In this document: one piece after another, positions 1 to 19,039 of the stretch | How the letters are laid out: each line of letters opens with the position of its first letter | How positions within the stretch are numbered: position 1 is the first letter of the stretch | Assembly (NCBI GenBank): GCA_008632985.1 | Contig: QPGO01000020.1 | Span: forward strand, 744,001-786,038 | Direction: 5' to 3' | Length of the DNA: 42,038 bases | From: Psammoneis japonica | Lineage: Eukaryota | Made by a program: the position numbers and the translations under genes | The notes under the pieces: generated by a model | Database searches by the model: none | The model's input: the letters and a program-made list of their open reading frames with translations, nothing else | What the model was told of the DNA's origin: nothing

Positions 1-525
1 CCAAAGGATCCAACTGTCCTTCTGAAGCAGCACAAAGGCTGCACAACCATCCTTTTGCACCTTTTGCAGCATCACAAAGGCTCCCAGCCACCACAGCTGG
101 CAGCAACACAAAGACTCCAACCACCACAGGAGGTGGCAGCAGCACCAAGACTTCAACCATCTTTTCTGAAGCAGCAGTGCAAAGGCTCCAACAGCCCTTC
201 TGCAATGGCACAAAGGCTGCAACCATCCTTCTGCAGAGCAGTGCAAAGGCTCCAACAGCCCTTCTGCAGTGGTGTGCAAAGGCTGCAACCATCCTTCTGC
301 AGCAGCACAGATGCTCCTCCCAACCACCACAGCCAAGTGGCAGCAATGCAAAGACTCCAACCACCACAGCCAAGTGGCGGCAGTGCAAAGGCTCCAAGAA
401 CTGTCCTGTCTGAAGCACCAGAAAGGCTCCAACACTGTCCTTCTGCAGCAGTGCAAAGGGTCCAAACTGTTGCAAGTGGCAGCAGCACAAAAGCTCCAGC
501 AACCATCACAAGTGGCATCAGTGCA
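1..525. repeat. Degenerate minisatellite, units of about 30 bp (core GCAGTGCAAAGGCTCCAAC...CCTTCTG / ...CCACCACA)
   Basis: CAAAGGCTCCAAC/CAAAGGCTGCAAC/CAAAGACTCCAAC recurs more than 12 times at roughly 30-35 bp spacing; the overlapping 'QRLQP' ORFs are by-products of the repeat. Confidence 0.85.
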
Positions 526-2934
526 AAGGCACCGTGTGCCATTCACACGTCCACAGAAACAAAGCCACAAGAACAATTTGACAGCTCAACCACCGTCGTT
601 CACATGTCAACAAAACTCCTGCAGTTTGTGCAAGATGGGCCACTCTCCTGAGTCATCATCATGAAAAAGCTGTTGGCATCTCATGCACATTTTTGACATT
701 GAGCACAGTGTGGAGACAGGTGCCGCACGGCAGGTTGCCCTGTTTTTGTGCACTGCCTGAGTCGTTGGTGCTCGTTGAAATGATGACCTGCCTTGTGCTG
801 TTTGTCTGAAGAGCTTGCATCAGCCAAAATGTCATTTTTTCTGGGTTGGCACTGCTGGCAGTGACAACAAACTAATTCCCGCAATCCACAGATTGAGTGG
901 CCAGTTTTGGACTAACCAAGGAAGTGCCACAAAGCCAACCAGCACATCACAGCACTGTCTGGAGAGACAAGACACCCCCACGCACCAGCCACATCATTCA
1001 CATGTCATCATTTTCTTGCTCAGTGAGTCTTTTGGGGTGACAGTGCATTGTTGGCAAAATGCTGGCTCTGCCACTGGCTTCATTGTGGGCAGTGTGCACA
1101 CCCCCACAAACACACATCTTTCAGCCCAAAACAACCCTCCACATGAAAGGGCAGCTTTTTCACATCAGCAAAACAAAAAAATTGACAGGACTTTGTGCAA
1201 CACCGGCTGGCAACACCCAGCAGACACAACTGGGGGCAACAAGGAGGCAACACTTGGCACAGGATTTGTTGTGTTCTTTTTTTTGCTGCAACCACAGTGC
1301 CACACTGTGCAGCATTGGCAAAGGACTTTTGCACACTCAGAGTGCACAGCTCATCAGCAAAAGCAGCAACCCCCATCTTTGAGTTTGCGCTGGCCACCAT
1401 CAACACAAAAGGAGACAAACATTTGTGCTCTTTCTGGCACACTGCATCAAGAGTGAAAAGGTTGCAGCTCAAAGCAGCAAGCTCTTCATTTGTCAGCAAG
1501 CACAAAAAGGGAGAACTCACAAGGCTTGAAAACATGGAACAAAGATCAAATGGAGCCAGAAGTTGGCTCTTTTCTGCACCCTTGAGCCCAACAACTGCTG
1601 AAGCAGTGTTTTCACCACACAAAGTGAAGAACTTGGTTGGCCAATGGAAAGAAGGGGGTCATCAAGAGCCATTGAAAATGGACAGAAACAGTTTGGAAAT
1701 GTTGCAAAAGATGGTCTTTGACAGTGACATGATCTGCGGTGTGCACAGAATTTGCGCTGGGTGCTGTGTAGAAAACTTGCTGAATTGAGAGAAAATGGCT
1801 GGAAAGGATGACAAGCTGCCAAGCCAGAAGAAGTTGCTGCCAGTTGTTTGCTGCTAAAAAATGTTGCTTGTTGGGCTGAATGATGCAGTGCCATTGGTGG
1901 AGTTGCTCAAAATGGGCTGGTGAGAGGACCCAGCAAAATGGCTCACACACCTTTGGAGAAGGAAGGAGGGCATCAGCGCCAGAGGGTGTGCAGAAACACA
2001 TGTGTGGCTGAGGGTGAGCAGCTGTCATCGAAAAAGTTTTCATTGGCAAAACATGACAAGCCATGTCAGCACACCCTGAATCCTCCATGAGTGCAGTTGC
2101 TTCCCCGCTGCCAGCATGTGCTGAAAAAACATCATCATCAACCACACCAGCCAGCAGCAACACACCTGGCCATGCTGTCATGCAGAGAAGCCAGAGTGCA
2201 CTTCACATTTTATGTTGTCAACTGACCCACCAAGCTGCAAAATGTTCAACTCTTCAGCTTCCTCAATGGCTTGAACTTTGCCAATTGGTGGATGAAGTGC
2301 TGCAGAGGTTGCGTGTTGGAATGTTGTCTTCTTTGTCATCACAAAGAGTCGGCTCAGGGTCAGACAATGTTTTGATTTTTTCTGCCATCAACATTTCTTT
2401 GAGTGCACACAAAAGAGACAGAGCTGTTGGAAGACTTGCTCCCCAATGCTCAAGAGTTTCCAACTGAGCCTCATGATTGACTGAAGCATGCATCAACATC
2501 AATTTGGACATGGGGTGTGGCCCAAGTCACAGACAGTCCAACCTGTCTTGTCTTGCAAAAATTCTGAACAATGCTTTTCTGCATTTTCATGATGAAATCA
2601 ACCTTTTTTGAACACACCTTCTTTCCTGATTCTTTCAGAAAACACACTTGTGACAAGGACAAAGCAAGCTGCAACACAAGCTCATGGGCTGTTTTCTTTC
2701 AATTGAGACCGGCAAAGAAGCTCTTGGCTCTGTGTTCTTCTTTTGTGTGCTCTGCTCTTTCTTGGAGGAACCCTGTCAAAACCCAGCTTGATGTCCCACT
2801 TTAAAGTCAAGTGCAAAATGCCACCAACTTCTGAAATCAACTCATGCAGCAAAGGATTGAAATTTCCAGCACAGAAGATGGCACCAAACAAATGTGCAGG
2901 CAGTCTCTGCATTGCTGAAGGATGCAAGAAGGCT

Positions 2935-5700
2935 TCAAGTGTCTCAGCCATCAAGGGCCTGGTGAGATGGTCTGCCAGTTGGTCCTTGGTGTCAATGCCA
3001 TGCACTGAGATCTCTTTCCTTGTGACATGGTCATGGAAGTGATGCAACTTGACATTTGAGTGCTTGGTGCATGGTCTGCACTTGCGCACATGCGTGCCAT
3101 CTCCAGAGCACTGCTGTTGTCTTCAAACACTTGGCAACGAATCTTGGGCTGTGACATCTTGATGGAGAACTTGTGCCACTTGAGTTCTTTCAACATCTCT
3201 GTCAAGAGTGTGGCTTCTTGCAGAGCATGTGATGAGCCACCAGTGTGTTCAGACTCAGCGCTGCTTGAGGCCACCTCAGTCTGAAGCCAAGATTTCCACA
3301 GTGTGGGACAACCTGTGCAAGTGGCAATGTGACCATCTCATGATCTTGCCACATCACGATCTTGGCCTGCTTCTCGTGGGTCCCAATTTCCACTGAAGTC
3401 TGTGTCCACACAAACTTCCAAATCCTTGTCATTCCAGGTTTTCAGAAAAGTGCCCTTGTCTCTGGTCTTGTGCAAGCACCTGCCAAGCTGCCACGTGGCT
3501 TTGGCATGCTCAACCTTGGGATCTGCTGTGAACCATGCACATTGATGGGTGACATGCGCAGTGTTGCTTTGAGCACATTTCTCCAAGCAGCTCAGCTTTC
3601 CAGCTCTGCTGATCTGTGGTTGAATGAACCATCAAATGGCTCTGAATCAGAGTGCCTCAATGAGATCTTGGAGGATGCCACAGAGGAGTGTCCTTTGCTG
3701 GCAGAGCATTTGGTGAATCCAATTGCAAGTCCTTGAGCATTTGGTCAATTGAGTGTGGTTGGGTCACATGAGCAGCACCCATCATCTTTTCTCACAATGC
3801 TGACACCCAGAAAATTCTGTGTGTCCCCTTCCACAGCAATGTTGAGCTTTGCCTCCTTGAGTTCCTCAACGATCTGTGATTGACTTTGTTCTCATCAGGA
3901 CCAGCAACGAGCAAGTCATTTTCCTGCACAAGAGACAAATTGTTTTTCCCCTGTGGAACACACACTCATCAATTTTTGATTGCTCAAAACCAAGCTTGTT
4001 GATTGGCCATTTGACCAGCAGATGCTTGTTCCACACTCTTCTGACCTGTTTTTGCCCACACACATTTTGGCAGAGCTTCAGAACATGGTCCTTGGCATTG
4101 CCTTTGTTGATCTTGAATCCTGCTGGCATTCCCATGCAAAGCTCTTTGTCAGCCAGCACCTGAGGAAAAGCCAAAACACAGTCCAATGATTTGGAATGCC
4201 ACCCGCTCATTGAATTGAGGGCATGCATCATTTGAACCAAGTTTTGTGCTGCCACTGGTGCATGTGTTTCCTCACATTCCTTCCCCTTTCTCATGCGCAA
4301 GCAGTCAATGTTCAAACAAGCCCTCCATTTCTTGACCTTGTGAGCTGCGATGTCATGCTTGCATTTCATCTGCCATGCCACTGGCAGCACCTTGCTGTCT
4401 CTTTTCACCTTTGATGGTGGAATTGTGGAGAAGTCACCATTTTCCATTTGATCTGTCACCTCCTTTTGCATGGCTTTCAGGAACTGCATGCAACCCGGTT
4501 CCTTCATCACCTGATGCGTGCACATGGTGTCAAGATCTGCTGGTGCTTTGCAGGCATGGAGGGGGCTCTTCTCTTCCCAGAGCACTTGTGAGTCTCAGGG
4601 ATGCATTGCGGTCAAACGCATTGTCTCACCCTCAACGTTGCTCCTTGTTTCTGCACTGCTTTCAGACATCACAGCAGCTTCCATCAGCCTGCTGACCGGT
4701 TGGCTCTTGCACCCTGAACGAGTCACTTTTGGTGCATCAAAGCTGCTTTGTGTCTCATTAGACTCGCGCTTTCTGGGAGCTGCTTCTAGAGATTCATTTG
4801 CAGGCATTGTTCCACCCTCATCTTCTTGAGGTTGCATGTGTGGGCCCTCTTGCCTTGGCGCCGCTTGGCCAGTGACTGCTGCAGTGTTGCCGCACTGCCA
4901 CAGCTCCAGATCTTGTGGGTCAGTCCATTGAACTTGTTTCTGTTGCATCTTGCCCTGCTCAGCTCCCTCTGAACTCACCAGTTTTGGTCTTTGTCACCTC
5001 CCTCTTGGCTGCCAATCCAGCTTTGACATGCCATCACAAATCAAGTTTGTCCTGCTGCAACGCATGGAAGGATGGATCAAATTTGACATGGAGTTGTGCT
5101 GGGCTCACAAGAGCAGCAGCTCAATCCAAGATGAACTCCACATTCTTTCCATGTGTTGGGCTTTGGCCTGAGTGGACAACTCCAACCCTTGATCTTTGCC
5201 TCCATTTGTGGTGTGGCAGGTTAGATTGCAAAGTGTCATTGAGAATGCACGCTGGGCAGCCAAAAGGTTTTCAGTGCTTTGGGTTTGCAGAGACTTGGGT
5301 TTTGGAGAACATCTGCAATGGGGTCAACTTGCCCTTCTTTTGGAAACCAGGCGCCAGCTCTTGAAGTTCTTGGATTCAGTGCTCAGCCGTGCGGTTCTGG
5401 TGGTGAGTGCCTGCCACTGTGAAAGTGAGTCATTGCCTCTGTGTTTGACGTGCAAACACCCAGTTGTTTGTCTTGAAGATGCCATTCTTGTTGGCATGGC
5501 AGGCTTCCACCGTGATGCCACAGCTTTTGGCATGCTGCTCAAAAGCATTTTTTCCCTCCAACATCTCTGCCGCAGATGCCATCTTTTGTGGGCACATGCA
5601 ACCCAACTTGGACCGTCAATTCACATGTGCTGTTGTGCACTTGTGTCTTTTGGTTGTCGGCCATTCAGTCATCTAAACAGCTGACCCTGGCATTGGTGAT
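2935..5700 (-). mobile_element. Degenerate Ty1/Copia (diatom CoDi-like) pol relic: integrase core - reverse transcriptase - RNase H, truncated at both ends
   Basis: Minus-strand motifs in Copia order. Integrase: 'KNAFEQHAKSCGITVEACHA..NGIF', 'KPFGCPAC..HHKWRQRS', 'HVKFDPSF'. RT: 'FLKAMQKEV', 'EETHAPV', 'LDCVLAFPQ', 'NVCGQKQ', 'GFEQSKIDECVF'. RNase H: 'LEVCVDTDFSGNWD', 'SSAESEH', 'VFEDNSSALEMA', 'TKHSNVKLHHF', 'QLADHLTRPL'. Many frameshifts and stops. Confidence 0.93.
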
Positions 5701-6784
5701 GCAAGCTTTTCTTCTTGCTTGGTCCCGGCAACAACAATTGTGCCAAGAAATGACCAAAGACAGCAGGACCAGAACCCAAGTGCAAGCTCAGCTTCTCTCT
5801 AAATGACTGAATGGCAGCAGCAGAAGCGCCTCCACAAGCAGCCAGAAAATGCCAACGCAAGTTGGCAGTGATTTCTTTCTTGCTTGACTGACTCGGCATG
5901 GTCTTTGTCAAGAGAGCTGAGCAGTGGACACAGCTGGGAATGTCATCATTGATGGCACACAGCTTGACAAAACCATGGAACAAATGTTTTGCATGCTTGA
6001 CTTTTGATGAGACCTTGCTGCGGCAGAAAGGGCTGACTCCCCATGTGCACCCTGAAGCTGTTGAGCAGACCTGTTGTCCTTGACGATCGTGTTGACTGGT
6101 GCTCATGCACTGTCATTTTGACACTCAGCAGTTGCAAATTTTTGTGTCAATGGAGCCGTGCAATGACTCTTTGGAGCAAGATCAGTGAGATCATCAATCA
6201 TGCAGATTTTCTCCCTAAATTGGAACAGCACATTTGAGCATGCCATGCAAGCAAACCACTTTTGTTCAGAGCTTTCACAAAGTGACATCTCTCAATGGAT
6301 CTTGATGCAAAAGTGTGCCCCAAGCGTGCGTCTGCATGAGCTCCATGAGGAAAATTGGAGCACATTTTGCATTTTGCAAATGCCCGCACCATGCATGACA
6401 CGACTCCCACTTCTGGGAAGGACAAACACAGTTCTTGAAGAATCACATCTTTGGAACAGCACAAGCATTCTTTGAGGTGAGATCACAACTCTGGTCTCCA
6501 CAACCAAGAACAGCCAAACCCAAAAGACTGCCATTTCAGTCAAATGTCATTCAGAGTTGCATGATGGCTTGGCCTGTCCATGCAGCATCCGAAGAACACT
6601 TGTTGGGAATGACATGCTTCAGTGACAAAACTCAGCGCCGAGGCTCTGGAAGTCATGCCACAGCAATGTCCGAACACCATTGAGAGACTGAAAATGTGTT
6701 GGCTCAACTTTGGTCCACGCGCATGTTTTCTGGATAAAAAAAGGCAACCCTCCATGCAAGTGCCTTGTTGCCGACTTTACATGA

Positions 6785-7216
6785 ATTGTGCTCTCCATCA
6801 ATTGGGCTGGAATGCATTGTTTGATGGCTTGCTTCATCCCGTCATGGCACATGCCTCAACCACAGGTGGAGTGGACTTTGTCTTTGATTTCCTTGAGAAT
6901 CAACGGTGCCAAGGCAGAGCTGCAGCTTCGAACAAAACAAAAGTTGGTGGCACCTCCCCACGGACAATCTTGGCTTTTCCTCAAAGGCGGCACCTGACAA
7001 ATTGCACTCTCCATCAATTGGGCTGGAATGCATTGTTTGATGGCTTGCTTCATCCCGTCATGGCACATGCCTCAACCACAGGGAGAGTGGACTTTGTCTT
7101 TGATTTCTTTGAGAATCAACAGTGCCAAGGCAGAGCTGCAGCTTTGAACAAAACAAAAGTTGGCAGCACCTTCCAATGGACAATCTTGGCTTTTCCTCAA
7201 GAGCGGCACCTGACAA
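6785..7216. repeat. Direct tandem duplication, 2 x 216 bp
   Basis: CTCTCCATCAATTGGGCTGG at 6791 and 7007; both units end CACCTGACAA (7000, 7216); few substitutions. Confidence 0.95.
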
Positions 7217-8466
7217 ATGGTGGGTGCGCATGTGGTCCAAGTGGCCTTTTCCACATGGACGCATGTGACAGTGCTGGAACTTTGTTGTGCTTGACTTGAT
7301 TTGTGGCAGAAGAACAACCAATCCACCCTGTGTCCCATGTTGACAGCAAGGCAGAAATGAGATCATGAACATGACAGAGTGGCACATGACGCTTTGGAGT
7401 TCGGATGGCACCAAGCCATGTGTCCGAGAAATGTTGTTCATGCTGGCAATCAAATTGGCATGTGACATTGGGACTCCCTTCCAATGCAAGCACACACCGT
7501 GGGATTGTTGGGAACGTTGTTTGGTTGTGGGTCACAACCTGAAGCATTGCTGGTGTGGACAGGCCGCTCAAGTTGGGTTTGAAGCAGTGCCAAACACATG
7601 CAGAAAAGGCACAATGTGCAAAGGTCACTTGGCATCAAAGGTCAGTTTTTGTTTCTTGTCCACCATGATGGAGTTGCTTTCCTCTGCACAATCCACTTGG
7701 GTGGGCTCCAACTTGTGCTTGACCACATCACTCTGGGCTCTGGCTCTGACTGGCTCCAATCTGCAGATTGGACAGCAATTCCCAATGTGGCTGCCACCAC
7801 CTCAGCAGCAGGAATGCCCTTTGAGGGAACCCAGAGCAGCTTGGATTTGTTGTCCTCCATGCACAACTTGTGCTTGGACTCGGTGCAGTTTTGGCTCAGT
7901 GGGGGCAAAACACACTGGGTTCATGGCATGGCGAGAAAGGCCAAAACAAATGGCAGGCAGTTTGGTGTGGCAATGGAACAAATGTCCCACTTTTGTGTGC
8001 CACACTTTTTCAACCAGACTTGTTGCAATGGACTCAATCATGTCGTGAAGCTGCTGACAGGAGGAAATTTTGATTGCGGACTGGCTGTTCTTGTGCGGAA
8101 TGCACACCAACATTCAATGAGAACCACAGGGGGAGTTGTTGCAATGTGTTCATGCCGGTGAGACATTGACAAGCAGGGACATCAGGGCCAGCTTCTGCCA
8201 TGGTGTTGTTTCATGCATTTTTAAGTTGGCAAGCACAAACTCAATTAAAGCAGACTGGTGTCAAGTGAAGTCATGAAAGGATCCACAGACCTGTCGTTTT
8301 GGCGATCATTGGAGCATTCAATGACGTTGTTGCCATCATTCACCCATTGCGCGATTGGGTTGAAGATCTTGAACAAGATGCCCAAGTTGAAGATTCTGTT
8401 TTCAACGCACATTTTGTGCAAAAATTCCCTTGGAAAAGGAGTGTCTCTTGTGAGTGGTTGTGCGAA

Positions 8467-8638
8467 TGAGAAAGTCATGTTGCGCTGAAAGCAAGAAGCA
8501 AGACGGGGAGACGGGAGATGGAGATGGGAGACACTGGCAAGAGCAAGGAGCAGCAGCACACAAAGAGCACTTGCAGCACACTGCTGCTGCCTGCTTTTGT
8601 GCTTTCATCTTTCATGCCTGTCACCAAGTGGCCCAACA
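8467..8638. repeat. Possible LTR-like segment (TG...CA ends), related to 9856-10084
   Basis: Starts TGAGAAA, ends CCAACA; shares CAAGACGGGGAGA.GGGAGA, GCAGCAC(AC)AAAGAGCA and CTG.TGCTGC with the second segment. No convincing PBS or TSD found. Confidence 0.35.
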
Positions 8639-8729
8639 TGCTCTCACGGCGGGAAGTTGCAAATGCACCCGGCCGGTCGGTGTGCAGACATTCTTTCTCA
8701 ATGACCAGCCTCTAAATCCGCCATCATCA

Positions 8730-9192
8730 TCCTGAATTCATGAATGGCCCAAATCCACCACCATCTTGAAAAGTTCATGACTGGCCTGAACTCAGTTGGT
8801 GCCAAGACTTCAAATGATCCGCTGAAACTGGCCTGAATCCACCACCATGCCAAAATTCACGACTGGCCCAAATTCACGACATTGGCTTAAATCTGCCACC
8901 ATCCTGAACAACTCACAACCAGCCTCCATGACTGGCATGAACTTGGCCAATGGCCTGAATTCGTGGCTGGCTTCAACCCGCCACCAGCGCCCTTCTGAAC
9001 AATTCACGACTGGCCTGAATTCATGACTGGCCTGACTCCACCACCTGTCACATGGCAACAGGAACCCAGTCTAAGTTCACGACTGTGCATGTGTCATCCT
9101 GCCCACTGCACACAAAAAGGTCACAACCAGAGCCTGAATTCACGACTGCCCCAACTCCACCACCAGAGGGCCCCAAAAAGTTCACGGCTGGT
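8730..9192. repeat. Array of a degenerate ~17-bp motif (GGCCTGAATTCACGACT) interspersed with CCACCACC
   Basis: AATTCACGACTGGCC / AATTCATGACTGGCC / AGTTCACGACTG variants recur about 10 times with irregular spacing. Confidence 0.8.
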
Positions 9193-9210
9193 TTGAGTCA
9201 TGTGCTGAGT

Positions 9211-9660
9211 GTTGCCAAATTTCTCAATCATTGTCATTTTTGTGCATGTCAGCAGGATGCGTTGGCATGTTGTTTGTGTCGCTCATCGATTGACACTGCA
9301 CTGCCGACAAAGAAATTGAAAAGGAACTTTTTTCCGTGGTGCGTTGAGTGTTGTTGAGCTTCTCAGAAAAAGCTTTCGATCAATGCAGCAAAGCATGCTT
9401 TGCTCTGACTCACACTTCTAACTCTGCTTTTGCCTGTTTTCAATCGCACTTCCAATCCACTCGTGTTGGCTCATGTGCCATGGCAGGCATCGAGGTCCTG
9501 GCTCTCACTTTTCGGGGAGCATTTCCGCAAAATTTCTCGATTTGCTTCTCAACCTGCCTCTGGCCTCTGGCCAAGTGCGTTTCTTCGACACTTGGAATGA
9601 CTGCATGACAAGTCTCACTCCAAAAAACAAACAGAACTCATGGTTGTTTCGGACTCAAGC
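9211..9660. repeat. Diverged, TA-erased paralogue of 12157-12200 plus 13200-13560 (old local duplication with a large indel)
   Basis: Shared blocks: GTTGC.AAATTTCTCAATCA.TGTCATTTTTGTGCA; CGTTGAGTGTTGTTGA; TGCTTTGCTCTGAC; TCGAGGTCC; CGCAAAATTT; TCGACACTTGGAATGACTGCAT.ACAAGTC. Confidence 0.85.
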
Positions 9661-9855
9661 TGGACTGTTGTGGAAATCCTGCAACAAACACGGCTGCTGG
9701 CTGTCCAGACCGTGGATGCTTTTTCCGAGGTGCCGTTCGTTTTGACATTCCGGATTTTCTGCACCATTTGAAGAATTTCACCTTGGCAAATCCAAAGTGT
9801 GGAGAAGTTAAATTCCGTCGTAATTGGCAAAATCTACAGTCCAAAGCTGAATTTA

Positions 9856-10084
9856 TGAGAAATGTGGGCCCACAAGTCTTGGTGGTTGCTGTGATTTCAA
9901 GACGGGGAGATGGGAGACTCAAACACAAGCAAGCCGCAGCACAAAGAGCATCGCACTGATGCTGCAAGATGGCACAGCTTGGTGACCAACAGTGCCAGTG
10001 ATGATGTCAAATGCAATGCATTGATGCTCGGTGCTTGCTGTGGATCCCTGCTGGCGACAGAGATTCTTCTTGCCGGCCACAACA
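9856..10084. repeat. Possible solo-LTR-like segment related to 8467-8638
   Basis: TGAGAAA...CACAACA ends and the shared purine-rich GACGGGGAGATGGGAGAC core; flanks do not form a TSD. Confidence 0.3.
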
Positions 10085-10284
10085 TCACTTTGGTGTGCTG
10101 AGAGGCCACAGCGGCGCTCTTCAGTGAGGGAGGTTCGGTTGTTCACATTCCCACACGCTCGGGTGAGGAGATTGTCAGTCAGACGGTTCAGCGAGTCGGC
10201 CAATGCCTCATTGGAGCTGGTCGAGTCTTTGCTCAATCCCATCCTGCTTCAAGTCTTTCTGCTTCTCCTGGTGCTTTCACAGTT

Positions 10285-10800
10285 GTGCTGTCCGACACAG
10301 TCAATGCCTTTGTCCTGCCCAACAATCATGTGTTTGTCATGACGGGCCTTTTCCAACACGTTCGAGACGAAGATGAGTTGGCCGCTTTGTTGGGACATGA
10401 ATTGGCTCATGGAATTGCATGCCATGCTGGTGAAAAAATGAGCGGTTCCATTGTTGTCAATGTCACTGCTCGGTTGTTGTTCTCAGTGGATCCTTCAGGG
10501 GCACTGTCGTCCACACTTCTCTCGGCAGCTCAGTTGCTGCAGGAGCTTTCTAATTCTAGACAAGCTGAAACCGAGGCTGATCAGATTGGTGTGTTCTTGA
10601 CTGCTCAGGCTTGCTGTGATCCACGTGCTGCCAAACGCGTTTTTGCGTGAGTTGTTTTCTTTGCGCACACTGGCATGCCATCTTGTTTGTCATTCCTCTG
10701 CTTAACTTCTGTTCTTCCATTGTCGGCATGTCCAGAGCAATGAAAGAGGGAGCAAAGGGAGCACAGCCTCCAGAATTCATTTCGACTCACCCTGGATGCC
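10285..10800 (+). pseudogene. Peptidase family M48 (Oma1/HtpX-like) gene fragment with one intron (10647-10735), TA-erased
   Basis: 'VNAFVLPNNHVFVMTGL', zinc motif 'LLGHELAH', 'SRQAETEADQIG', 'ACCDPRAA' (family ACYDP); a GTGAGT...CTTAAC...CCAG intron restores the frame to 'AMKEGAKGAQPPEFISTHPG'. No intact N- or C-terminus evident. Confidence 0.85.
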
Positions 10801-13800
10801 AGGGGCTTTGGGGGTCTTTGAGAGTGATGCCGGTCACCGTTGTCGTCAGGTTCGTGAAGACATGCGAGCAGCTCATTTGATTGTGGCGCAGAATCAAGGC
10901 ACCACGACTTAACACAGGGGAGAGGAGCTTGAATGCAATGGCACCAGGAGTTGAGAGTGGTGCTCTAGAGAGTTCGCAGGCCAAAAGAATGAAAGGGACA
11001 TCGCCAATGACAACGCTGGCGCAGTGGGAGCACATCGCAGGGGACGCAACAGTGCAGGGGCGGCGCTTGCAAGTGGGCTTGTGGTGTGCTGTGCAAGTGA
11101 TGGCTCTGCCAGTGTGATGAAGGAATCGAAACTCGAAACCAGCGATGTCATGCCCAATGACGAAGTGCTGCATCCTTTGTCATTTGCCATCTTTTGCTGC
11201 TCTTCTGTTCAAGTCGCTGCTCTTCTGTTCAAGTTGTTGAACATTGTGGCAAGCAGGCAATCAGAGCCGAAACAGCCCAGCATGCATCGGCGACGGGGCA
11301 CACCGTGACGAACAACCCGACGTGGACTCTGGGCAAGCAAGTGCACGATGACATCGCAAGCACTGCGACCGTCATCGCAGTCCATTTGACATGCATGCGG
11401 AATGAATTGCGTGCAAATGAAGATTGCCACAGTGTGCTTTTAGAGTCTTTCTGCTTCCATTGCAAAGGTTCAAAGCGTGTTTCAAACAGTTGAAACACGC
11501 CAATGTCAAAAGTTGACATGGAAATCGGTTGCGCAGGGTGACGTTGCCTCAAGAGCTCCATCAAAAGATGGCGCTCAAGCTTTTGCGTGTCTTCAGAGAG
11601 AAAAAATGTCACTCTAAAAAAAGCAAAAGGGGGGGCGCACTGCAGAGACAACAAGAAAACTTGCCAGTCAACCGCGTTCTAAATCAACACTCCCCACGAG
11701 TGAAGACTCACCGCATCATGCCACTGATGCGACAGAACCCCAAACCTGTGTTCTGTCAACAGCATGATCTGCTCGGCGAGCTCTTGCTGCTTCACAGACG
11801 AACGCTGCTGTCTGTTTCAACAGCCGTGACCTGACGGGTCAAGCGAACAGGCAACTTCCTGTGCTTGAAGACACGAGAGTGACATGGACTCAAGGCCGGA
11901 GAGATGCACTCGATTTGCCCCGACCTCTGGACTTAACTGGCAACACCTGCGCCACCTGGAGACAACACGTCAACAAGCATGATGAGTTGTGGAACACCAA
12001 ACAAGAGCTGGCTCTCTGTTGTCCGCAAGAAGGGCGAGCCATCCTGGGCGATCGCGGCAATCGTTGCTTGGCGAACAACAACACATCGTGCGAGACAAGG
12101 AGTTGTGATTGAAAAGCGTGAAAGAATTTCCGAGAGATTTTGAGTGAGACATGACCGTTGCTAAATTTCTCAATCAGTGTCATTTTTGTGCACATCTGTA
12201 GAATTACTACCATGATTTCGTATGTAGAACATTCGTGAAACTTGGTCTCGCGCACGTGTGCGCGGTCATTAGACTGTGTAGGCGTGTGTGCGTGTGTGAG
12301 GTGTAAGTAGAATATACGTAGAATTACTACTGATGAGTTGACAGGCGGTGGATTTTCCGCCGGTACACAATCTACGCGGTCTACATGGAACATAAATTTA
12401 TGTCGGTCTCTGAGGATTTTACATATCATTAACATTTCTTTGGTCTTTTAAATATACATACCCAAATTCAAAAAAGTGAGGAACACCCCGAAACACATTT
12501 TTGAATCTGTATAAAAAATTTTTTTATTTAACGGTCCGAACAGGGTCGCCCCGAAGCGCTTCTCAAAATATCCTCATATTGTATATAGTAAAACATCTAC
12601 TATCACCAAAACAGAGTCACTATCGGATAAATAGATCCCGTGTTCTTCGCGCGCAAACAACACGATAACGCACAACAACACCATGGCGAGAAACGCGAAC
12701 GCCGTCCCCTCATCTACAAGTTGGGAATACGAGATACTATTGAAGTGGTTGGACAATATGTATGCGCTGTATTCATGGGTCAAGTTGGGTTTCTTCTCGT
12801 TGCTTGTTGTTGCGTCATTTTACTACGTTTTGACCCACGCCGTGTTCTTTGCTTTGTTGCTTCTGCTCGCGCGCCACCAACAGCACTTCCTGCAGGGTAT
12901 GGCTAGTTGCTCATCACATCGAACCCAAACGTGCGCGACCAACTAGCCCTACCCCGGCTAACTCATACTTTCAAAATTATTACCAAATCCTACGTACACT
13001 TTACGGTAACCATAGAAAACGCAAACATTTGTCGCCAAGGTGACTGTTCGTTGTCGAGGTCCGAGCTAAGAATAATTAGCAGGTGGCGCAACACATCTTC
13101 TTGCCACATACAATAACACGGCATTCAGCACGACGATGACAAAGCTCCGGATTGAGATCATCACAGATCACAGTAGTCGACTTCCCAACGAAGAAAGTGA
13201 AAAAGAAACCTTTTCCGTAGTACTGTACGTTGAGTGTTGTTGATTGTTGAGCTTAATTCACAGAAGAAGCATTTGATTGCAGCAAAGTATGCGAATGCTT
13301 TGCTCTGACGCATGCTTCTACTTTTACTTTTACTTGGTTTTTATCATACCTCCAATCCATCCACTCGTATCAGTTTGTGTACCATCCCGGATATCGAGGT
13401 CCCGGTATTCTCTTTTCGGGGATAATTTTCGCAAAATTTATCGATTTGCTTTCTCAACCTACCTCTGGCCACGTTTGAACGTGCATTTCGTCGACACTTG
13501 GAATGACTGCATAACAAGTCCTATTCCAAAACATCAAAAGGAACTCGCGGGTTTTTCGGATCCAAGTCATCTGGTTGATTTTACTCATGACACTCCGTTG
13601 CTAACGTGGGCGTCGTAGACGTTGCTCTCGATTCACAGCAGATTCTTTCAACGATTGAAGGACGCTGGATGCAGTGATATCGAGACAAATAGCCATAAGA
13701 GTGGGTTGTTGATGTTTGTGTGAGTCTCGGTGGTGAAGCAGGTGATTTTGTTGCAGTTGAAAATTACGCAAAGACAGCACAAGCACTGCAAAGTTCGTCA

Positions 13801-14944
13801 TCTGCTGCAAGAGCACTCAAGGACGGCGCTCAAGATGGAGCGAGCGGACAAGATTGTTGCGCTGATTGGGGCACAGTGACAAAAGCACCTCGACATATTA
13901 TGGAAGCCACTGTTGCGGCGCTGGATGAATTGCTTGTTTCTAATTGAGCCGATTGTTGGCATCTTATGCGGGTGGAGCTTGCTGCGCCTGAGCCAGGCAC
14001 GACAGCCCGCACTGCTCGAACGTTCGGCGGCACTGTTGCAAAGACGATCTTCTCCTGCGGTTGACTGTTGCGTCTTTTCAAATTATCGCGATACTGTGAT
14101 CAGATGTGGCCAACCAGAAAGTGTTATGGGTGTGGCCAACCGAAAAGTTGGCCACAAATGGAGTCCTGACGGGAAGGCCGTCTTTCTTTCCAAGCGGTGC
14201 TAGTGTCACCGAAATGCGATTCGTCCCATCTGAAAAGTATGCGCAAAATAATTACGAGTGAAATGATAATGTCGGCTACTCTACAAGCGCGAAATCCTAG
14301 AGTATTTTAACTATAGCCGGAGCAGTTTTGTGGCTTCACTAAGTAAGTCAATGACTTTCCGTGTCTCTATGCGCTTAACTTGGCCATGCCAAATAGTTGT
14401 TACTCGTATTTCGGTCCCTCGACTCAAATGCTTCTTGTTGCCGATTGGTCGTCATTCTTAACCGATTAGTTGGCGCGAGTCGAACTTTTTGCGTGCTTTG
14501 AGCTAACAAGCTTCGTTATCAGTGCGAGTGGGGGCTTGGTTGTTTTGTTTGTCTGGACGAAGCGCACTTGATACGAAATCTGCAACGGGAGTAGCAACTG
14601 CTGCTGCACTTGAAGGTTCAAGTTTTGTCGGGCCGCCGCTCCATTTCGTTGCCTTTAGCCTTGTTATTGTCTTAACCATTCCAAGAGCCCGTTGCTTCTC
14701 TAATCGCTAGTAGTTGTCGGTGAGGTGAATACGTAGCATTATTTGTGCAGTAGTCGAAGGTAATGATGCCGCCAATCGGAACTCTTTTATACCTGAAGCA
14801 GTACCGCAGTAGCATTTTGGATTGGCTAATGAATCAATTCAGCAGAGATACAAAAGCTACGATTATGCTATGAAAGCTTTAAAGGGGTGGCGACGCCTCG
14901 ATGTTTGAGAATACTCTTTAGCAGCAAGCATTCTTACTTGTCTT

Positions 14945-15982
14945 TCAGGAAGCAAGTCCATCCAAAAGTGTCATTTCGTCAGGTGATAGCTGAAAGTCAA
15001 ACACTTGTAGGTTTTCGATAAAGTGATCCTTCTTCTTGCTTTGCGTGGTGAAGGAGGCGCCGTTCTGGACAATCCAACGCAACGCGACTTGAGCTCCACT
15101 TTTACCATAGGCTTTCCCAATGTCTGCGCATTTTGCTTTCATTTGCGAAGTAAATCTCCCTCCTAGACTCCCTCCCAAAGGAGCCCAAGCTTGTACCAGT
15201 ACACCTCGTTTCTTGTTCTCCTGTACAATGCTTTGAGCCCCACCAGGATGGTATGCTACCGAAAGCGGCAATTGATTCACGACAGGCTTGACTTGGAGAG
15301 CCGGGTCCTCCAGAATACAATCGATTTGTTTGGGTGAAAAGTTGGATATAGAAAGAGTCCTTGTAAGTTTCTGATTGTGCATATCCTGAAATGCTTTCCA
15401 CTGTCCACGAATGGAATCGCAGTCCGGCCCGGGATAATCCAACATGATTTGATCAAGATAGTCAATACCACCCACAGCAAACGCCTCGAGGTTCTGTTTC
15501 CATCCCTTCGTTGTAGCCTTGTAAGCCGCATCAAATCCTTGCACACGATTGGAAACCACGGATCCAGAAATAAATATTTCAGATCGGTCAATTCCAGAAT
15601 CTCGAACTGCCTTGGCAAAGCCACGTTGGTTGCCAGCCAGAACAGATGCAAAAAAGTTTCGATATCCCACCTCCAGAGCTGTTCGAGTCAGCTTGTATGC
15701 CTTGTCGTCGTCATAGATCTGCAGTCCAAAACTCGCCAACGGAAACTCGTAGCCGCCCTCCAGCGTAGTAGTTGTTGTAGAGGGAGATGCCGCTATTGCT
15801 CTGTTGTCATGATTTGGTAAAAGAACACCGCTTCCAACAGCAACAGCAGCAGAGCTCGTACGAACGAATGCATCTCTTCTGCTGATACTCTTCCCACCAT
15901 AAGCAGATGGTGAAACATTAAGTGATGCAACTAGGGCGGGAACACATGAAAGAAGAGGTATAAACACTGAACGCAACCTCAT
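14945..15982 (-). CDS. Aldo/keto reductase-fold protein (~345 aa) with signal peptide and twin-arginine presequence
   Basis: Intact ORF from ATG 15982 (MRLRSVFIPLL...). AKR motifs 'ALEVGYR', 'RSEIFI', 'DYLDQIMLDYP', 'ISNFS', 'PVVNQ', 'VQAWAPLG', 'AQVALRW', 'ENLQVFDFQLS'. Confidence 0.9.
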   Translation of the reverse strand: MRLRSVFIPLLSCVPALVASLNVSPSAYGGKSISRRDAFVRTSSAAVAVGSGVLLPNHDNRAIAASPSTTTTTLEGGYEFPLASFGLQIYDDDKAYKLTRTALEVGYRNFFASVLAGNQRGFAKAVRDSGIDRSEIFISGSVVSNRVQGFDAAYKATTKGWKQNLEAFAVGGIDYLDQIMLDYPGPDCDSIRGQWKAFQDMHNQKLTRTLSISNFSPKQIDCILEDPALQVKPVVNQLPLSVAYHPGGAQSIVQENKKRGVLVQAWAPLGGSLGGRFTSQMKAKCADIGKAYGKSGAQVALRWIVQNGASFTTQSKKKDHFIENLQVFDFQLSPDEMTLLDGLAS

Positions 15983-16272
15983 TGTCTTGTTTGGTGGTTT
16001 GATGATGGCGCCGCAGATTGAGGATGTGATGGATGATGCGATGTGATCGTGATCGTCATGCCGTGTGCGATGGACGATGCGGATGTGATGTGATGTTGTG
16101 TGCGCGATGATGCGGTGGGCGGGCGGTGGGCTGTTCCGCGTGCACGAGGTCGATTTTTTTGAAAACAATGGGAGCTCGATTCGAAAACCATACTAGCAAG
16201 GCGACAGCGCGGCCGCCGGCCGTCGATCGATGATGATCTTCACGCACAAAAAATACAAAAAATTGAAGAAAA
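15983..16272. promoter_or_regulatory. Probable bidirectional promoter region
   Basis: 290 bp between divergent start codons; contains GATGT/GATG repeats and a GC-rich near-palindrome GCGGCCGCCGGCCG. Confidence 0.55.
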
Positions 16273-18357
16273 ATGAAGAGAGCACCATGCTCATCTTTAC
16301 GGCATTATCAACGCATGTTGATGACAGGTTGCTGTTGCTTGTGCCTGGCTAATCAAGCGGAGGCCTTTATCTGCCCCATCTTTTGGGAGCCTCGTCAAAA
16401 TATTGCAGTTTCTAGTTTCAAACAGAGCAGAACATTGTCATGTCGACATTGGCAAAGTCAAACATACAATGTCCAGAAGAAAACAACCGCATCAATCGAA
16501 CCATACACACGAGAGACGTTGGACGACGGCCATTCAGTATCTTCAAGACCAATGCGAATAGAGAACCGAGAAAGCAAGAGAAGAAAAATATACTTCGTAA
16601 TGGCTATGATTCTTTCGTGGTTCATTCTGGCAAAGTCTCCCGCGTCTGCTGCTTCGTCTGCTGCTTCTCCGTCACCAATAACACAAGCTCATCCACTTGA
16701 ATTGAAAAAGCTCGGAATCGCTGCTTGTATGGCTTTATCGGTTGGTGGTGTAGGAATGAGAATTGCAGGACTGAAGCGGCTGTCGGTTCAGATTATGATT
16801 GCATGCGGTCGGTGTGCGCTTCAACTCTATCTGGTGGGGTCGTTGATACTCACGAGACTGTTTGGAACAACCAATCCTGCCATTGTCATGTCATGGATTA
16901 TTGGAGTGGGAATAATTGCAGCCTATGAATCGTATATGCGCGTTGAGTATTCCTATCCCGCGTTGAGCAAGCACTTGGTAGTTTCTGTACTATCCGGTGG
17001 GCTATCGGTACTGGGACTTGCATTGCTGTGGAATGTATTGGGAAATCTCGATCCCTGGTTTCAACCAAGAACCGTTATCCCGATATCTGGAATGATATTT
17101 GGTAATACCTTATCAGCTGCTAGTTTAGCTGCGGATTCGCTTACAAAGGAATTCGCCCTTCGAAGAGATCAGATCGAACTGCGCTTGGCTCGTGGTGCGT
17201 CGTCGGATGAGGCGGCGTTACCACATGTGCGGACAGCTCTGACGTCCGCTCTAACACCCGCCATCAACTCTCTTTCCATTACGGGTATTGTACACATGCC
17301 TGGCATGATGTCGGGGCAAATATTGGCGGGACAGTCGCCGCATCAAGCGGCGGCATACCAAGTCATGATTTTATTTTTCATTACCACCAGTGCCTGCGCA
17401 ATGGTTCTTGTCCTTTGTCAATTGGTTAAGCGCGAAATGTTTGCTAGCGAAACACTCACTCTGACTCGACTTTATTCAATAAACACGGGCGGCAAACAAG
17501 CACAAGATCAAGGCACAATAAGCCGCGACAAATCACCATCAGCTTACATCTGGCGACTTGTAGCATCGATTGTCGGTATTCGATTATCAGCAGATCCTAA
17601 ACACACTCGACTGAACTCACCCAAGGCTTCAACGGGGAGCTTGTCAGTACCTTCATTCGAGAATTCTCCCACCATAAAGGCGATGGAGATGAGCACGCCG
17701 GATAAAAAAGACCGCAGAGATATGCCGGTTTTGGAGGTTAAAGAACTCAAAGTCAAGGTCGGGCATCGCGACCATCGAACTGTTTCATTCAATCTTTTTC
17801 ATGGCGACCGTATCGGAGTTATGGGCCCAAGTGGATCAGGGAAGACGCAGCTATTGAGAACTCTTGCTGCGTTTGAGGTATTCAGTGGTACAAATGACAA
17901 GCAAATCTCTTTGAACGGTGCTGTTTCGCCTAGCTATAGTCTTGCCCAATGGCGATCCATGGTATCTTGGTTACCACAGGATAAACCAACGCTCGGTGGA
18001 ACTCCAAGAATGTTTTTCAACGAAGTACTTGGCTACAAAAGCCGACGAATGAAGAATGAGAAAGATAACACCCCTTGTCCCGACCAGTATTGCATCCAGT
18101 GGAGCTTACATCCAAGCGCCTTGGATCAATCTTGGTCTACCTTATCGGGAGGGGAAGCACAGCGTGCCTCACTTGCAATTGCCCTATCGTTGAAACCAAC
18201 AGTTCTGCTCTTGGATGAATCCATGGGAGCACTCGACAAGAAAACTTCATCATTGGTGGAAACGACCCTCGTTGATTCTGGTATTCCTGTCATTCTCGTG
18301 ACACACTCCGACGAACAATTGGAACGATTTTGCACCCATACTATCCGTATCGCCTAG
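16273..18357 (+). CDS. Fusion of a UPF0014 (FetB/YbbM, plant ALS3/STAR2-like) permease and an ABC ATPase (FetA/YbbL, STAR1-like); putative plastid targeting
   Basis: 694-aa uninterrupted ORF. Permease motifs 'PRTVIPISGMIFGN', 'IELRLARGAS', 'GIVHMPGMMSGQILAGQSP.QAA.YQVMI'. Walker A GPSGSGKT, signature LSGGE, Walker B LLLDE, H-loop VTH. N-terminal 'AEA-F' resembles the diatom ASAFAP cleavage motif. The true start may be a slightly later Met. Confidence 0.9.
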   Translation: MKRAPCSSLRHYQRMLMTGCCCLCLANQAEAFICPIFWEPRQNIAVSSFKQSRTLSCRHWQSQTYNVQKKTTASIEPYTRETLDDGHSVSSRPMRIENRESKRRKIYFVMAMILSWFILAKSPASAASSAASPSPITQAHPLELKKLGIAACMALSVGGVGMRIAGLKRLSVQIMIACGRCALQLYLVGSLILTRLFGTTNPAIVMSWIIGVGIIAAYESYMRVEYSYPALSKHLVVSVLSGGLSVLGLALLWNVLGNLDPWFQPRTVIPISGMIFGNTLSAASLAADSLTKEFALRRDQIELRLARGASSDEAALPHVRTALTSALTPAINSLSITGIVHMPGMMSGQILAGQSPHQAAAYQVMILFFITTSACAMVLVLCQLVKREMFASETLTLTRLYSINTGGKQAQDQGTISRDKSPSAYIWRLVASIVGIRLSADPKHTRLNSPKASTGSLSVPSFENSPTIKAMEMSTPDKKDRRDMPVLEVKELKVKVGHRDHRTVSFNLFHGDRIGVMGPSGSGKTQLLRTLAAFEVFSGTNDKQISLNGAVSPSYSLAQWRSMVSWLPQDKPTLGGTPRMFFNEVLGYKSRRMKNEKDNTPCPDQYCIQWSLHPSALDQSWSTLSGGEAQRASLAIALSLKPTVLLLDESMGALDKKTSSLVETTLVDSGIPVILVTHSDEQLERFCTHTIRIA

Positions 18358-19039
18358 AGGTTTTTTCTTTGTCGTTTAACTGCTTTGAGCAGCAACCGTT
18401 GGGTGCCTCGAGATATCATTGGATACACATCCTGTTCCAGATACAAAACTGGATTCCTAGTCCAAGAAGACGGTCATACCATCCTATATTCAAACAAACA
18501 ACGAGACGCTAACTGCATTTCATGAGTGAGTAACGTCTTGGATAGAGAGAGTGAGTATGGAAGAAGGAGAAAAACTGCACGCATCCCGATAATCTTTTGC
18601 TTCTTTGCTACTCGCACCATCACTCTTTTTAAAAGATATCGCCTGTGTCGGTTCAAAATTTGTATGTTTCGTCAAGGGTTGAAGACAACGGGCACTACAT
18701 TACTCTCAAATGACAAACGGAGCCCCGACATCATCTATTGGTCGTCCTTGAAACCGCCATCCTTGTGCAAGCAATGCTTAAGTCCGATAGTGACATCGAC
18801 TGACAGTAACATACGCAGTGACGGAAAATTTCTTTAGTGTCAAACGCTTAGTGCGTAGCTGTCCCATCTAGAGATGAAGCGTTCGCTCTGCCCCAATGTC
18901 ACTTTCGCTGAAGAAAACCATGCATTGCACGCACTGTCAGCCAAGCAGCTCCTCTTCATTTGTCAGTGCTTTGGTCGTGCATAATGTCGTCATTCATGAC
19001 TCGATTGTAATTGCAGATCGACTGGGCCCCTCATACGCA

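Follow-up and report, generated by a model that had tools for sequence, protein, structure and literature searches.

Strand-symmetric loss of TpA with a flank signature in repeat-bearing islands of a probable diatom genome

We describe three islands in a stretch of DNA from Psammoneis japonica in which the dinucleotide TpA has been almost completely converted to TpG and CpA, with a context around the few surviving sites that is best described as T-Y-T-A-R-A. We document the extent of this depletion, its direction and strand symmetry, the classes of site that survive and their agreement with a model of two half-sites, a set of observations that probably reflects a TpA-specific mutator acting at the DNA level, at rates that depend on flanking bases and with the two strands hit independently, on silenced repeats that it has brought near saturation. 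TpA hypermutation of foreign DNA has been reported once before, for Bigelowiella natans in a preprint of 2026, and the flank signature is the new part. Mutation-accumulation lines of that species gained 231 mutations in two viral inserts, of which 230 were A-to-G or T-to-C changes, all of them on TpA, arising at about 1000 times the background rate in a process that, according to the text of the preprint, is active today and confined to some lines (Mettrop et al., bioRxiv 10.64898/2026.01.13.699255).

Results

Extent and content of the islands

The window analysed here is the whole stretch of 42,038 nucleotides. Islands were delimited by TA counts per 200 bases, a scale at which their borders are sharp (Table 1). 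Only 42 TA are left in the 18,140 bases of the three islands, against 814 in the 23,898 bases of the non-island part of the window, and the observed/expected (o/e) ratio of TpA in the islands falls to 0.00-0.09 while that of CpA/TpG rises to about 1.4-2.0. The segment at 29600-30400 was considered as a further island and rejected: it is free of TA, but CA and TG are not raised and the sequence is a Lys/Ser/Gly-rich coding repeat.

Table 1. Positions of islands, repeats, coding remnants and spared sites in the window
Feature	Position	Strand	Details
Island 1	1..12197 (to ~12200)	.	TpA o/e 0.00-0.09; CpA/TpG ~1.4-2.0; 35 of 42 surviving TA
Island 2	19050..23250	.	TpA o/e 0.00-0.05; CpG 0.10-0.34; 5 TA survive
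Island 3	40300..42038	.	continues past the window end; 2 surviving TA, both close to the inner border
Copia-type reverse transcriptase remnant	3869..4594	-	RVT_2, E 6e-16; 0 Tyr in 242 residues
Tandem duplication	6784..7218	+	216 bases, 93% alike; 14 differing bases
Multi-copy unit	9200..12197	+	summed word depth ~160-260 vs 34-60 for single-copy; TA-depleted, near-normal CpG; M48 peptidase exon inside
Paralog copy A (in island)	9270..9670	+	1 TA kept
Peptidase_M48 open frame	10102..10647	+	E 1e-22; HELAH retained; ends at GTGAGT; 0 TA-bearing codons
TA-rich unmutated element	12198..13150	.	~950 bases; summed word depth ~4000; exactly at the island border; splits second unit
Paralog copy B (outside island, unmutated)	13150..13580	+	20 TA
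11 TYTARA sites	2800..20750	.	T at 2802, 4787, 5674, 5800, 8713, 10557, 10966, 11441, 11615, 11680, 20747

The islands contain a remnant of a Copia-type reverse transcriptase (RT), tandem repeats and a multi-copy unit with a captured peptidase exon, and silenced repeat DNA is the best explanation of what they are. Since RVT_2 and Peptidase_M48 are the only solid Pfam matches among the 143 stop-to-stop island frames of at least 70 aa, the origin of most island DNA is unproven. An AMP-binding match in one island frame was rejected as chance (E 0.006; 15.9 bits, the cut-off being 29.9), none of the stop-to-stop frames of at least 70 aa in island 2 matched Pfam, Rfam at gathering scores returned no match over the whole window, and self-comparison of the window revealed no similarity of the three islands to one another. 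The 14 bases at which the two copies of the tandem duplication differ include two adjacent CA/TG doublets (6789-6790 and 6948-6949) and three differences of CpG versus CpA/TpG.

Repetition and depletion do not coincide throughout. Mutation has reached the multi-copy unit and spared its near single-copy relative, but the element of far higher depth that adjoins island 1, for which terminal repeats were looked for and not found, is also unmutated, which suggests either that something besides repetition is needed to trigger the process or that it is episodic or belongs to the past. CpG has been lost unevenly in island 1, with o/e ratios of 0.09-0.35 up to about 8000 and of 0.44-0.78 at 8001-12000, and TA loss is ahead of CpG loss at 8001-12200. 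We considered a deaminase with a 5'-T preference that also removes CpG, and residual CpG in strongly depleted parts is indeed short of TCG (17% versus 28-30%). Because this deficit is only slight, and because at 8001-12200 TA has been lost without a matching loss of CpG, the loss of CpG was treated as a separate process.

Direction of change

Two comparisons establish that TA has changed to TG or CA, through A:T to G:C transitions at TpA. At the 11 positions of the RT remnant where Tyr is conserved in 15 relatives, all 11 residues have changed, 7 to Cys and 4 to His; searches for further relatives of this remnant yielded nothing credible among PDB sequences (E 0.23) and 24 pattern matches, none confirmed, in a metagenome scan. 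The 20 TA of the unmutated paralog correspond in the island copy to 1 TA, 8 TG, 3 CA and 8 gapped or unclear positions, and about half of the 20 CpG of the unmutated copy are retained, over a paralogy of island and normal DNA that spans only about 380 bases.

It is very improbable that the pattern is an artefact in which TA is truly present and a modified base has been miscalled by the sequencer or assembler. Heavy base modification can give systematic errors in nanopore-only assemblies, and the reads examined here may stem from the same sample as the assembly of the window. Yet independently built contigs from run X1 match the window at 340-3064 and 7053-9339 with no differences, so that 2.7 and 2.3 kb of island sequence are reproduced letter for letter at an even word depth of about 34, as noisy reads would not do, which is strong though not final evidence against miscalling; nor would miscalls yield clean Cys and His codons at conserved Tyr positions or the strand consistency seen here. 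Other letters in the reads derive from paralogous copies.

Strand symmetry

The change is strand-symmetric and took place in DNA. Counts of CA and TG are 1348 and 1316 in island 1 and 458 and 489 in island 2, 18 of 20 one-kb bins show a balance of the two, and they do not occur in runs (z of -0.4 to -1.5 in runs tests). Both outcomes occur on the single coding strand of the RT frame, where the Tyr codons show 7 TA-to-TG and 4 TA-to-CA changes, and non-transposon sequence, in the form of the M48 exon, is likewise depleted.

These data bear directly on ADAR-like A-to-I editing of retrotransposon transcripts, fixed through reverse transcription, as the source of the pattern. Such editing predicts TA-to-TG changes on the sense strand only, in conflict with the 4 His of the RT frame and with the balance of CA and TG throughout, and it leaves the depletion of tandem repeats and of a host-type peptidase exon without explanation. 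ADAR also prefers G on the 3' side, opposite to the pattern found here. The presence of an RT remnant in island 1 and the preference of ADAR for U before the edited A (quoted in 10.64898/2026.01.13.699255) speak in its favor, but we consider it exceedingly improbable.

Flanks of the surviving sites

An earlier note on this DNA had described the surviving TpA at 870-11940 as mostly YTAR, and the effect proves stronger than it stated, with 26 of 33 sites in this class and 7 exceptions. The coordinates it listed are correct within 1-2 bases, but YTAR sites at 9419, 10910 and 10966 were missed, 9809 (TTAA) was apparently lumped with the exceptions at 9820-9855, and 20313, 23073, 40331 and 40429 were unlisted. 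Over all islands, YTAR accounts for 31 of the 42 survivors, mixed sites (YTAY or RTAR) for 11 and RTAY for none, against 127 (16%), 465 and 222 of the 814 sites outside, a comparison that involves a small sample from one window and that uses non-island DNA as a proxy for ancestral TA contexts in place of the true ancestor of the repeats. The excess of YTAR is significant both against the 0.25 expected from base composition (binomial p = 4e-11) and against the non-island share of 0.156 (p = 7e-17), the absence of RTAY among 42 survivors has p ~1.6e-6, and in island cores, with borders excluded, YTAR makes up 28 of 36 sites.

Some TA must arise anew from the abundant CA and TG through C-to-T and G-to-A changes, and the survivors could in principle be products of ordinary mutation after the process ended. 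New TA would, however, carry the flanks of island CA/TG sites, 25% of which are YxxR; when 42 such sites were drawn 100,000 times, YxxR averaged 10.3 and at no time went above 23, against the 31 observed, so that this origin has next to no probability.

The second base 3' of the A is the strong further determinant: A occupies +2 in 46 of the 73 purine half-sites of survivors, against 26% outside islands (p = 3e-11). The order TAY > TAG > TAA proposed in the earlier note holds only in part: TAY is fastest, and the contrast of A and G at +1 is of borderline significance (Fisher p = 0.05) and limited to half-sites with a base other than A at +2. At least one TA-R-A half-site is present in 35 of the 42 survivors, compared with 176 of the 814 sites outside. 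The spared half-site is thus TA-R-A.

A mutator devoid of flank preference, with TYTARA-like sites protected through protein binding or through a base modification at the motif, or else kept by selection, would agree with the undepleted density of TYTARA (11 sites in 18.1 kb of islands and 11 in 23.9 kb outside) and with its palindromic form, which binding and modification sites often share. Survival is nevertheless graded and multiplicative over half-sites, not all-or-none for one motif, with half-protected sites such as TTTACA surviving at intermediate rates; the lean of mutation products described below is not expected if whole sites are shielded, and the sites are scattered through degenerate repeats and show nothing that points to a function. 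We therefore regard shielding as improbable.

Two-half-site model and mutation products

If flank-dependent mutation strikes the two strands independently, the survival of a site should be the product of its two half-sites. The fitted half-site survival is 1.28 for a purine followed by A (RA), 0.30 for a purine followed by another base (Rb) and 0.05 for a pyrimidine (Y). For the classes (RA,RA), (RA,Rb), (RA,Y), (Rb,Rb), (Rb,Y) and (Y,Y) the model gives 13.6, 12.7, 6.1, 5.1, 4.1 and 0.4 sites, and 11, 15, 9, 5, 2 and 0 were observed, so that independent hits fit all six classes. The reasoning of the earlier note, that YTAR is the sole class lacking TAY on either strand, is correct.

The model also predicts which strand should have changed at mixed-class CA/TG sites. 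In the islands the strand with the pyrimidine flank changed in 1189 cases and the other in 834, compared with 906 and 793 outside, an excess of the size expected, by our arithmetic, from the fitted rates. Survivors carry the flank signature of the mutational process, as had been proposed, and products lean as predicted, although the lean is modest relative to the non-island background (odds ratios of 1.1-1.4 and p of 0.009-0.34, depending on the control set). At mixed sites of known ancestor, the predicted strand changed in only 6 of 10 cases (3 among 5 Tyr codons and as many among 5 paralog sites), where the model expects about 8; one miss is a change of TTC-TAC to TTC-CAC, in which the half-site on the changed strand is TAGA, immune under the model.

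Discussion

Proposed mechanism

In the mechanism that we favor, each event would be a transition of A on one strand, where TA becomes TG, so that the opposite strand then reads CA in place of TA. Hits on either strand of a site would be independent, at a rate set by the two bases 3' of the A: fast with a pyrimidine at +1, about 2.5 times slower with a purine at +1 and a base other than A at +2, and close to zero with a purine followed by A. RTAY, being fast on both strands, would be gone, mixed sites nearly gone, YTAR would survive and T-Y-T-A-R-A would be left untouched. The agent may be an enzyme directed at silent chromatin that acts on duplex DNA through base flipping, as suggested by the best sites having alternating purine-pyrimidine flanks, with poor stacking, and the worst having purine runs. 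Its chemistry could be deamination of adenine to inosine, for which we see about the same chances as for a thymine-directed route, and the loss of CpG in the older parts would be a separate, slower process.

Candidate chemistries

The A34 that TadA or ADAT2/3 edits in tRNA has U33 before it in every case, so that a TpA rule would result, and the target loop of bacterial TadA is UACG, with a pyrimidine after TA. On this loop the earlier note's appeal to TadA agrees with our data, and it is the only TadA/ADAT preference to do so. The 5'-T restriction that the note ascribed to TadA-derived base editors applies, in the part of the source describing ABE-type domains, to cytosine only, the adenine context being broad, and amphioxus ADAT2, which deaminates both A and C in DNA, is described there as preferring GAA for adenine and TCG for cytosine (PMC10354150). 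Neither preference on DNA matches a mutator that is fast on T-A-Y and spares TA-R-A, and the background argument of the earlier note is to that extent weaker than it was put there. Pfam scanning of the island frames and of six large frames outside revealed no deaminase family.

The same mutator and signature could instead have a thymine chemistry, with, for example, a TET/JBP-type thymine hydroxylase acting on T in R-T-A and 5-hydroxymethyl- or 5-formyl-uracil mispairing with G or being misrepaired to give T-to-C changes. Because the data are strand-symmetric, every A-centered rule has an exact T-centered mirror, here R-T-A fast and T-Y-T-A immune, and this route fits equally well. Base J in the telomere repeats of kinetoplastids and 5-hydroxymethyluracil in dinoflagellates both occur preferentially at T before A, which favors it, and 5-hydroxymethyluracil opposite A has low mutagenicity, which does not. 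In its support, the only ADAT2 tested on DNA in the cited part of the literature favors GAA and not TAY (PMC10354150). The window holds no evidence for thymine modification or for such an enzyme, and the text of the B. natans preprint favors an adenine deaminase, from an ADAT2 homologue alone (10.64898/2026.01.13.699255). As an explanation in its own right, we judge it unlikely.

Relation to known systems

The TpA mutator that we propose has its closest counterpart in B. natans, with which it shares three features: transitions on TpA only, to TpG or CpA, on either strand and in discrete regions. The preprint text further describes genome-wide clusters of TpA-poor, CpA+TpG-rich windows, like the islands here, and a low-TpA coding set that is enriched for reverse transcriptase and DDE domains and has a TpA frequency of 0.0018, against 0.0023 in our islands (10.64898/2026.01.13.699255). 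The two cases differ in that the host genes of the window look diatom, whereas B. natans is a rhizarian (chlorarachniophyte); in that 18 kb of repeats are depleted almost to saturation here, compared with a Rho of 0.45 given for the B. natans viral insert; and in that CpG loss here accompanies TpA loss in the older parts. Activity was shown in real time in B. natans, and the only hints of it here are the lead of TA loss over CpG loss at 8001-12200 and the CA/TG doublets at which the tandem copies differ. In the main text of the preprint the words context, flanking, trinucleotide, neighbo- and CpG do not appear, and no flank rule is given (10.64898/2026.01.13.699255).

The repeat-induced point mutation (RIP) that ascomycete fungi show is likewise a transition mutator that acts alike on both strands, is specific for a dinucleotide, destroys repeats and leaves behind sharp-bordered islands with skewed dinucleotide ratios. 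RIP changes CpA to TpA by C-to-T transitions, which raises TpA and lowers CpA/TpG, whereas here TpA is destroyed and CpA/TpG are raised; moreover, a very high-copy repeat adjoining an island has been left untouched here. The direction of RIP is also given in the Discussion of the B. natans preprint (10.64898/2026.01.13.699255). ADAR and APOBEC resemble the present case as deaminases that hypermutate selfish elements with a neighbor-base preference, but they act asymmetrically, on one RNA or cDNA strand, in contrast to the balanced counts and the two outcomes on one gene strand found here.

These comparisons lead us to put forward, tentatively, a broader hypothesis: that diatoms and chlorarachniophytes may possess a mirror image of fungal RIP, a chromatin-aimed DNA editing defense that erases TpA from silenced repeats on both strands, with V-R-T-A-Y-B as its best and T-Y-T-A-R-A as its immune context, carried out by an uncharacterized base-flipping enzyme, be it one that deaminates adenine in DNA or one that modifies thymine, that might be old enough to be common to the SAR supergroup.

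Implications

As TAA and TAG stops vanish and Tyr turns into Cys or His, long false open frames arise on all six frames, and the 143 such frames of at least 70 aa in 18 kb of islands mislead gene callers and family searches. The flank rule provides a first handle on the enzyme and is usable as a genome-wide search key for affected regions. If the repeats of a probable diatom have come, at saturation, to the same outcome as in B. natans, TpA hypermutation would not be a quirk of a single species.

Methods

The window was divided by dinucleotide ratios computed per kilobase, which separated two kinds of DNA, and the borders between them were placed from TA counts per 200 bases. Each TA was scored as two half-sites, one per strand, defined by the bases 3′ of the A. 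Half-sites were assigned to three classes, namely pyrimidine (Y), purine followed by a base other than A (Rb) and purine followed by A (RA), and the survival of a site was modeled as the product of its two half-site factors. All 143 stop-to-stop frames of at least 70 aa in the TpA-depleted islands were scanned with Pfam, and the reverse transcriptase remnant among them was aligned with 15 relatives of 45–50% identity and normal Tyr content.

Results

TpA depletion is confined to islands. The observed/expected ratio of TpA is 0.00–0.09 per kilobase at 1–12000, 19001–23000 and from ~40300 to the end, where CpA and TpG reach ~1.4–2.0, versus TpA ratios of 0.3–1.1 in the rest of the window. Counts per 200 bases place the island borders at ~12200, 19050, 23250 and 40300, and the islands retain 42 TA in 18,140 bases, compared to 814 in the remaining 23,898. 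Both TA and CpG are low across 1–8000 (CpG 0.09–0.35), whereas at 8001–12200 the TA ratio is 0.06–0.09 and that of CpG still 0.44–0.78. The two losses seem to be uncoupled, with either a faster TA process or a CpG process covering less ground; because 8001–12200 is depleted in TA yet retains CpG, we infer that TA loss outruns CpG decay. The 134 residual CpG of the strongly CpG-depleted parts (1–8000, 19050–22600 and 40900–42038) have T before C in 17% of half-sites versus 28–30% outside, and G before C in 34% versus 24–25% (chi-square p = 3e-5), denoting a mild extra loss of TCG.

Many open frames occur in the islands because TAA and TAG have been erased: the 143 frames in 18 kb are spread over all six reading frames, constituting a trap for gene callers. 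Solid Pfam matches were obtained for two of them, a Copia-type reverse transcriptase and a Peptidase_M48. The latter sits within a TA-depleted multi-copy unit, has Cys at one aligned position where a solved relative has Tyr, and may represent a captured exon or, alternatively, a gene suffering bystander damage. A TA-rich, unmutated element lies exactly at the first island border, splitting a second copy of the multi-copy unit; no terminal repeats were found for it.

Features of the window, with coordinates, strand and supporting evidence
Feature	Position	Strand	Evidence or remarks
Tandem repeats, 33–37-base	first 650 bases
Copia-type reverse transcriptase remnant	3869–4594	-	Pfam
Tandem duplication, 216-base	6784–7218
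Multi-copy unit	9200–12197		summed word depth ~160–260 vs 34–60 in unique parts
Paralog pair (~380 bases), island copy	9270–9670
Paralog pair (~380 bases), unmutated relative	13150–13580		just outside island
Peptidase_M48 frame	10102–10647	+	Pfam, E 1e-22; HELAH intact; then GTGAGT
TA-rich unmutated element	12198–13150		summed word depth ~4000 in reads
Two long frames	24393–28901, 30897–33674	+	proline-rich (PSP/PTP) and Lys/Ser/Gly-rich repeats
Tandem duplication, 1.26-kb	28128–29389, 29390–30687		copies 93% alike
Tandem repeat, 134 bases	35469–35798		2.4 copies, 87% matches

Sequences with known relatives reveal the direction of change. At the 11 positions where Tyr is conserved in its relatives, the reverse transcriptase remnant carries Cys (7) or His (4), and it contains no Tyr in 242 residues; the underlying codon changes, TAY to TGY or CAY, correspond precisely to TA becoming TG or CA. 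In the paralog pair, the 20 TA of the unmutated relative correspond to 1 TA, 8 TG, 3 CA and 8 gapped or unclear positions in the island copy, which retains about half of the relative's 20 CpG. The copies of the 216-base duplication differ by two adjacent CA/TG doublets, as expected if a single ancestral TA (or CG) was resolved independently in each copy.

Both outcomes appear on the one coding strand of the reverse transcriptase frame, 18 of the 20 one-kilobase bins have balanced CA and TG (the exceptions being the tandem repeats at 1–1000 and the bin at 40300), and runs tests detected no clustering of CA/TG by strand (z −0.4 to −1.5). This pattern rules out transcript editing, and the strand balance together with the presence of both outcomes on one strand indicates a process operating on both DNA strands. 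A base-calling artefact is very unlikely, since contigs assembled independently from one sequencing run (X1), possibly the assembly's own sample and with no library type on record, match 340–3064 and 7053–9339 with 0 differences and an even word depth of ~34.

The flanks of the surviving TA are highly non-random. In 31 of the 42 the TA is flanked as YTAR, in the remaining 11 the flanks are mixed (YTAY or RTAR), and RTAY does not occur (p ~1.6e-6), whereas TA outside islands are 16% YTAR, 57% mixed and 27% RTAY; these figures stem from one window and 42 sites, with ancestral contexts approximated by proxy. The YTAR excess is highly significant against both base composition (p = 4e-11) and the non-island share (p = 7e-17), holds in island cores (28/36), and is beyond the maximum of 23 YxxR observed in 100,000 draws of 42 island CA/TG sites. 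The earlier note had reported that survivors are mostly YTAR, and this is borne out, also within its own range (26/33); its coordinates were correct to within 1–2 bases and it missed three further YTAR sites.

Its reading of these flanks as the mutator's own preference is likewise supported, and can be sharpened to the sparing of TA-R-A. The first base after A in the 84 surviving half-sites is A in 56%, G in 31%, C in 10% and T in 4%, versus 23, 21, 30 and 26% outside islands. Among the 73 surviving purine half-sites, 46 have A as the second base, compared to 26% outside islands (p = 3e-11) and to 32% for A-R-N within them (p = 5e-8), and at least one TA-R-A half-site is present in 35 of the 42 survivors. 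The proposed preference for TAG over TAA is marginal (p = 0.05): half-site enrichment is equal for AA (4.6) and GA (5.0), and A exceeds G only when the second base is not A.

With fitted half-site survival factors of 1.28 (RA), 0.30 (Rb) and 0.05 (Y), the product model reproduces all six site classes. The hexamer TYTARA is equally dense inside and outside islands (11 in 18.1 kb versus 11 in 23.9 kb).

TA sites by half-site class, with island counts given by the product model
Class	Outside	Islands, observed	Islands, modeled
(RA,RA)	11	11	13.6
(RA,Rb)	43	15	12.7
(Rb,Rb)	73	5	5.1
(RA,Y)	122	9	6.1
(Rb,Y)	343	2	4.1
(Y,Y)	222	0	0.4

If the strands are hit independently, mixed sites should change mostly on the strand with a pyrimidine after the A, which under the model means ~70% of (Y,Rb) sites and nearly 100% of (Y,RA) sites. 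Among mixed-class CA/TG, the pyrimidine-flanked strand is the changed one in 1189 versus 834 cases in islands and in 906 versus 793 outside (645 versus 518 without the proline-rich repeat genes). The lean follows the predicted direction in all three class pairs, with the greatest asymmetry for (Y,RA), as predicted, and by our own arithmetic the excess has the size given by the fitted rates. Native CA/TG dilute this signal, however, and odds ratios against controls are only 1.1–1.4 (p 0.009 to 0.34). At mixed sites with a known ancestor, the predicted strand changed in 6 of 10 (3/5 Tyr codons and 3/5 paralog sites), where ~8 were expected; in one of the misses, the strand that changed reads TAGA. 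Evidence from survivors for the flank rule is strong; the strand-choice evidence is consistent with independent strands but weak, and the whole TA site may instead be recognized and the strand then chosen at random.

Outside the islands, an aldo-keto reductase has named relatives 61–66% identical, all from raphid pennate diatoms, and a UPF0014-ABC fusion gene has best matches only 46–47% identical, which shows that the window does not belong to the published Bigelowiella natans genome. For either protein the closest Atlas clusters are predominantly diatom, and these homologues suggest that the host is a diatom. Exact-match X1 contigs have a word depth of ~33–35 over 340–14222 and ~59–61 from 15387 on (to 19413), and a haplotype-specific block in a diploid would fit this step. 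The first long repeat-rich frame starts with a DUF7467 domain, and the repeats in this region account for its GC skew of ~−0.4. The 134-base repeat sits upstream of a 722-aa frame that matches no Pfam family.

Discussion

The results establish a TpA-specific, strand-symmetric and region-limited transition process that depends strongly on the two bases flanking TA on either side. The agent would be an enzyme directed at silent repeat chromatin. Since the highly repeated element at the island border is unmutated, repetition alone may not be the trigger, or the process may be episodic. The best site, RTAY, alternates purine and pyrimidine, whereas in the immune TYTARA a pyrimidine run meets a purine run; given this, one may speculate that the enzyme acts by base flipping on duplex DNA, with stacking setting the accessibility of the base. 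The chemistry could be adenine deamination, yielding inosine read as G, but because the data are strand-symmetric a thymine-directed route (T to C) fits equally well.

Fungal RIP follows the same logic in the opposite direction. The natural TadA loop is UACG, in agreement with the flank rule described here. In contrast, the amphioxus ADAT2 study describes a preference on DNA for adenine within GAA and cytosine within TCG, and a broad adenine context for engineered TadA (PMC10354150), both unlike a rule sparing TA-R-A. A literature search for a TpA flank signature, including diatoms, algae and diatom hypermutation, yielded a single relevant preprint. According to its main text, A-to-G and T-to-C changes in two integrated viral regions of Bigelowiella natans arise exclusively at TpA, at ~6e-7 per site per generation. 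It also describes clusters of windows poor in TpA and rich in CpA+TpG, as well as a set of low-TpA genes in which reverse transcriptase and DDE domains are overrepresented, and it proposes an ADAT2-like deaminase (10.64898/2026.01.13.699255). The words context, flanking, trinucleotide, neighbo- and CpG are all absent from that main text, which offers no flank analysis. TpA hypermutation is hence already in print for one alga; here it apparently occurs in a diatom, and its fingerprint is both new and testable.
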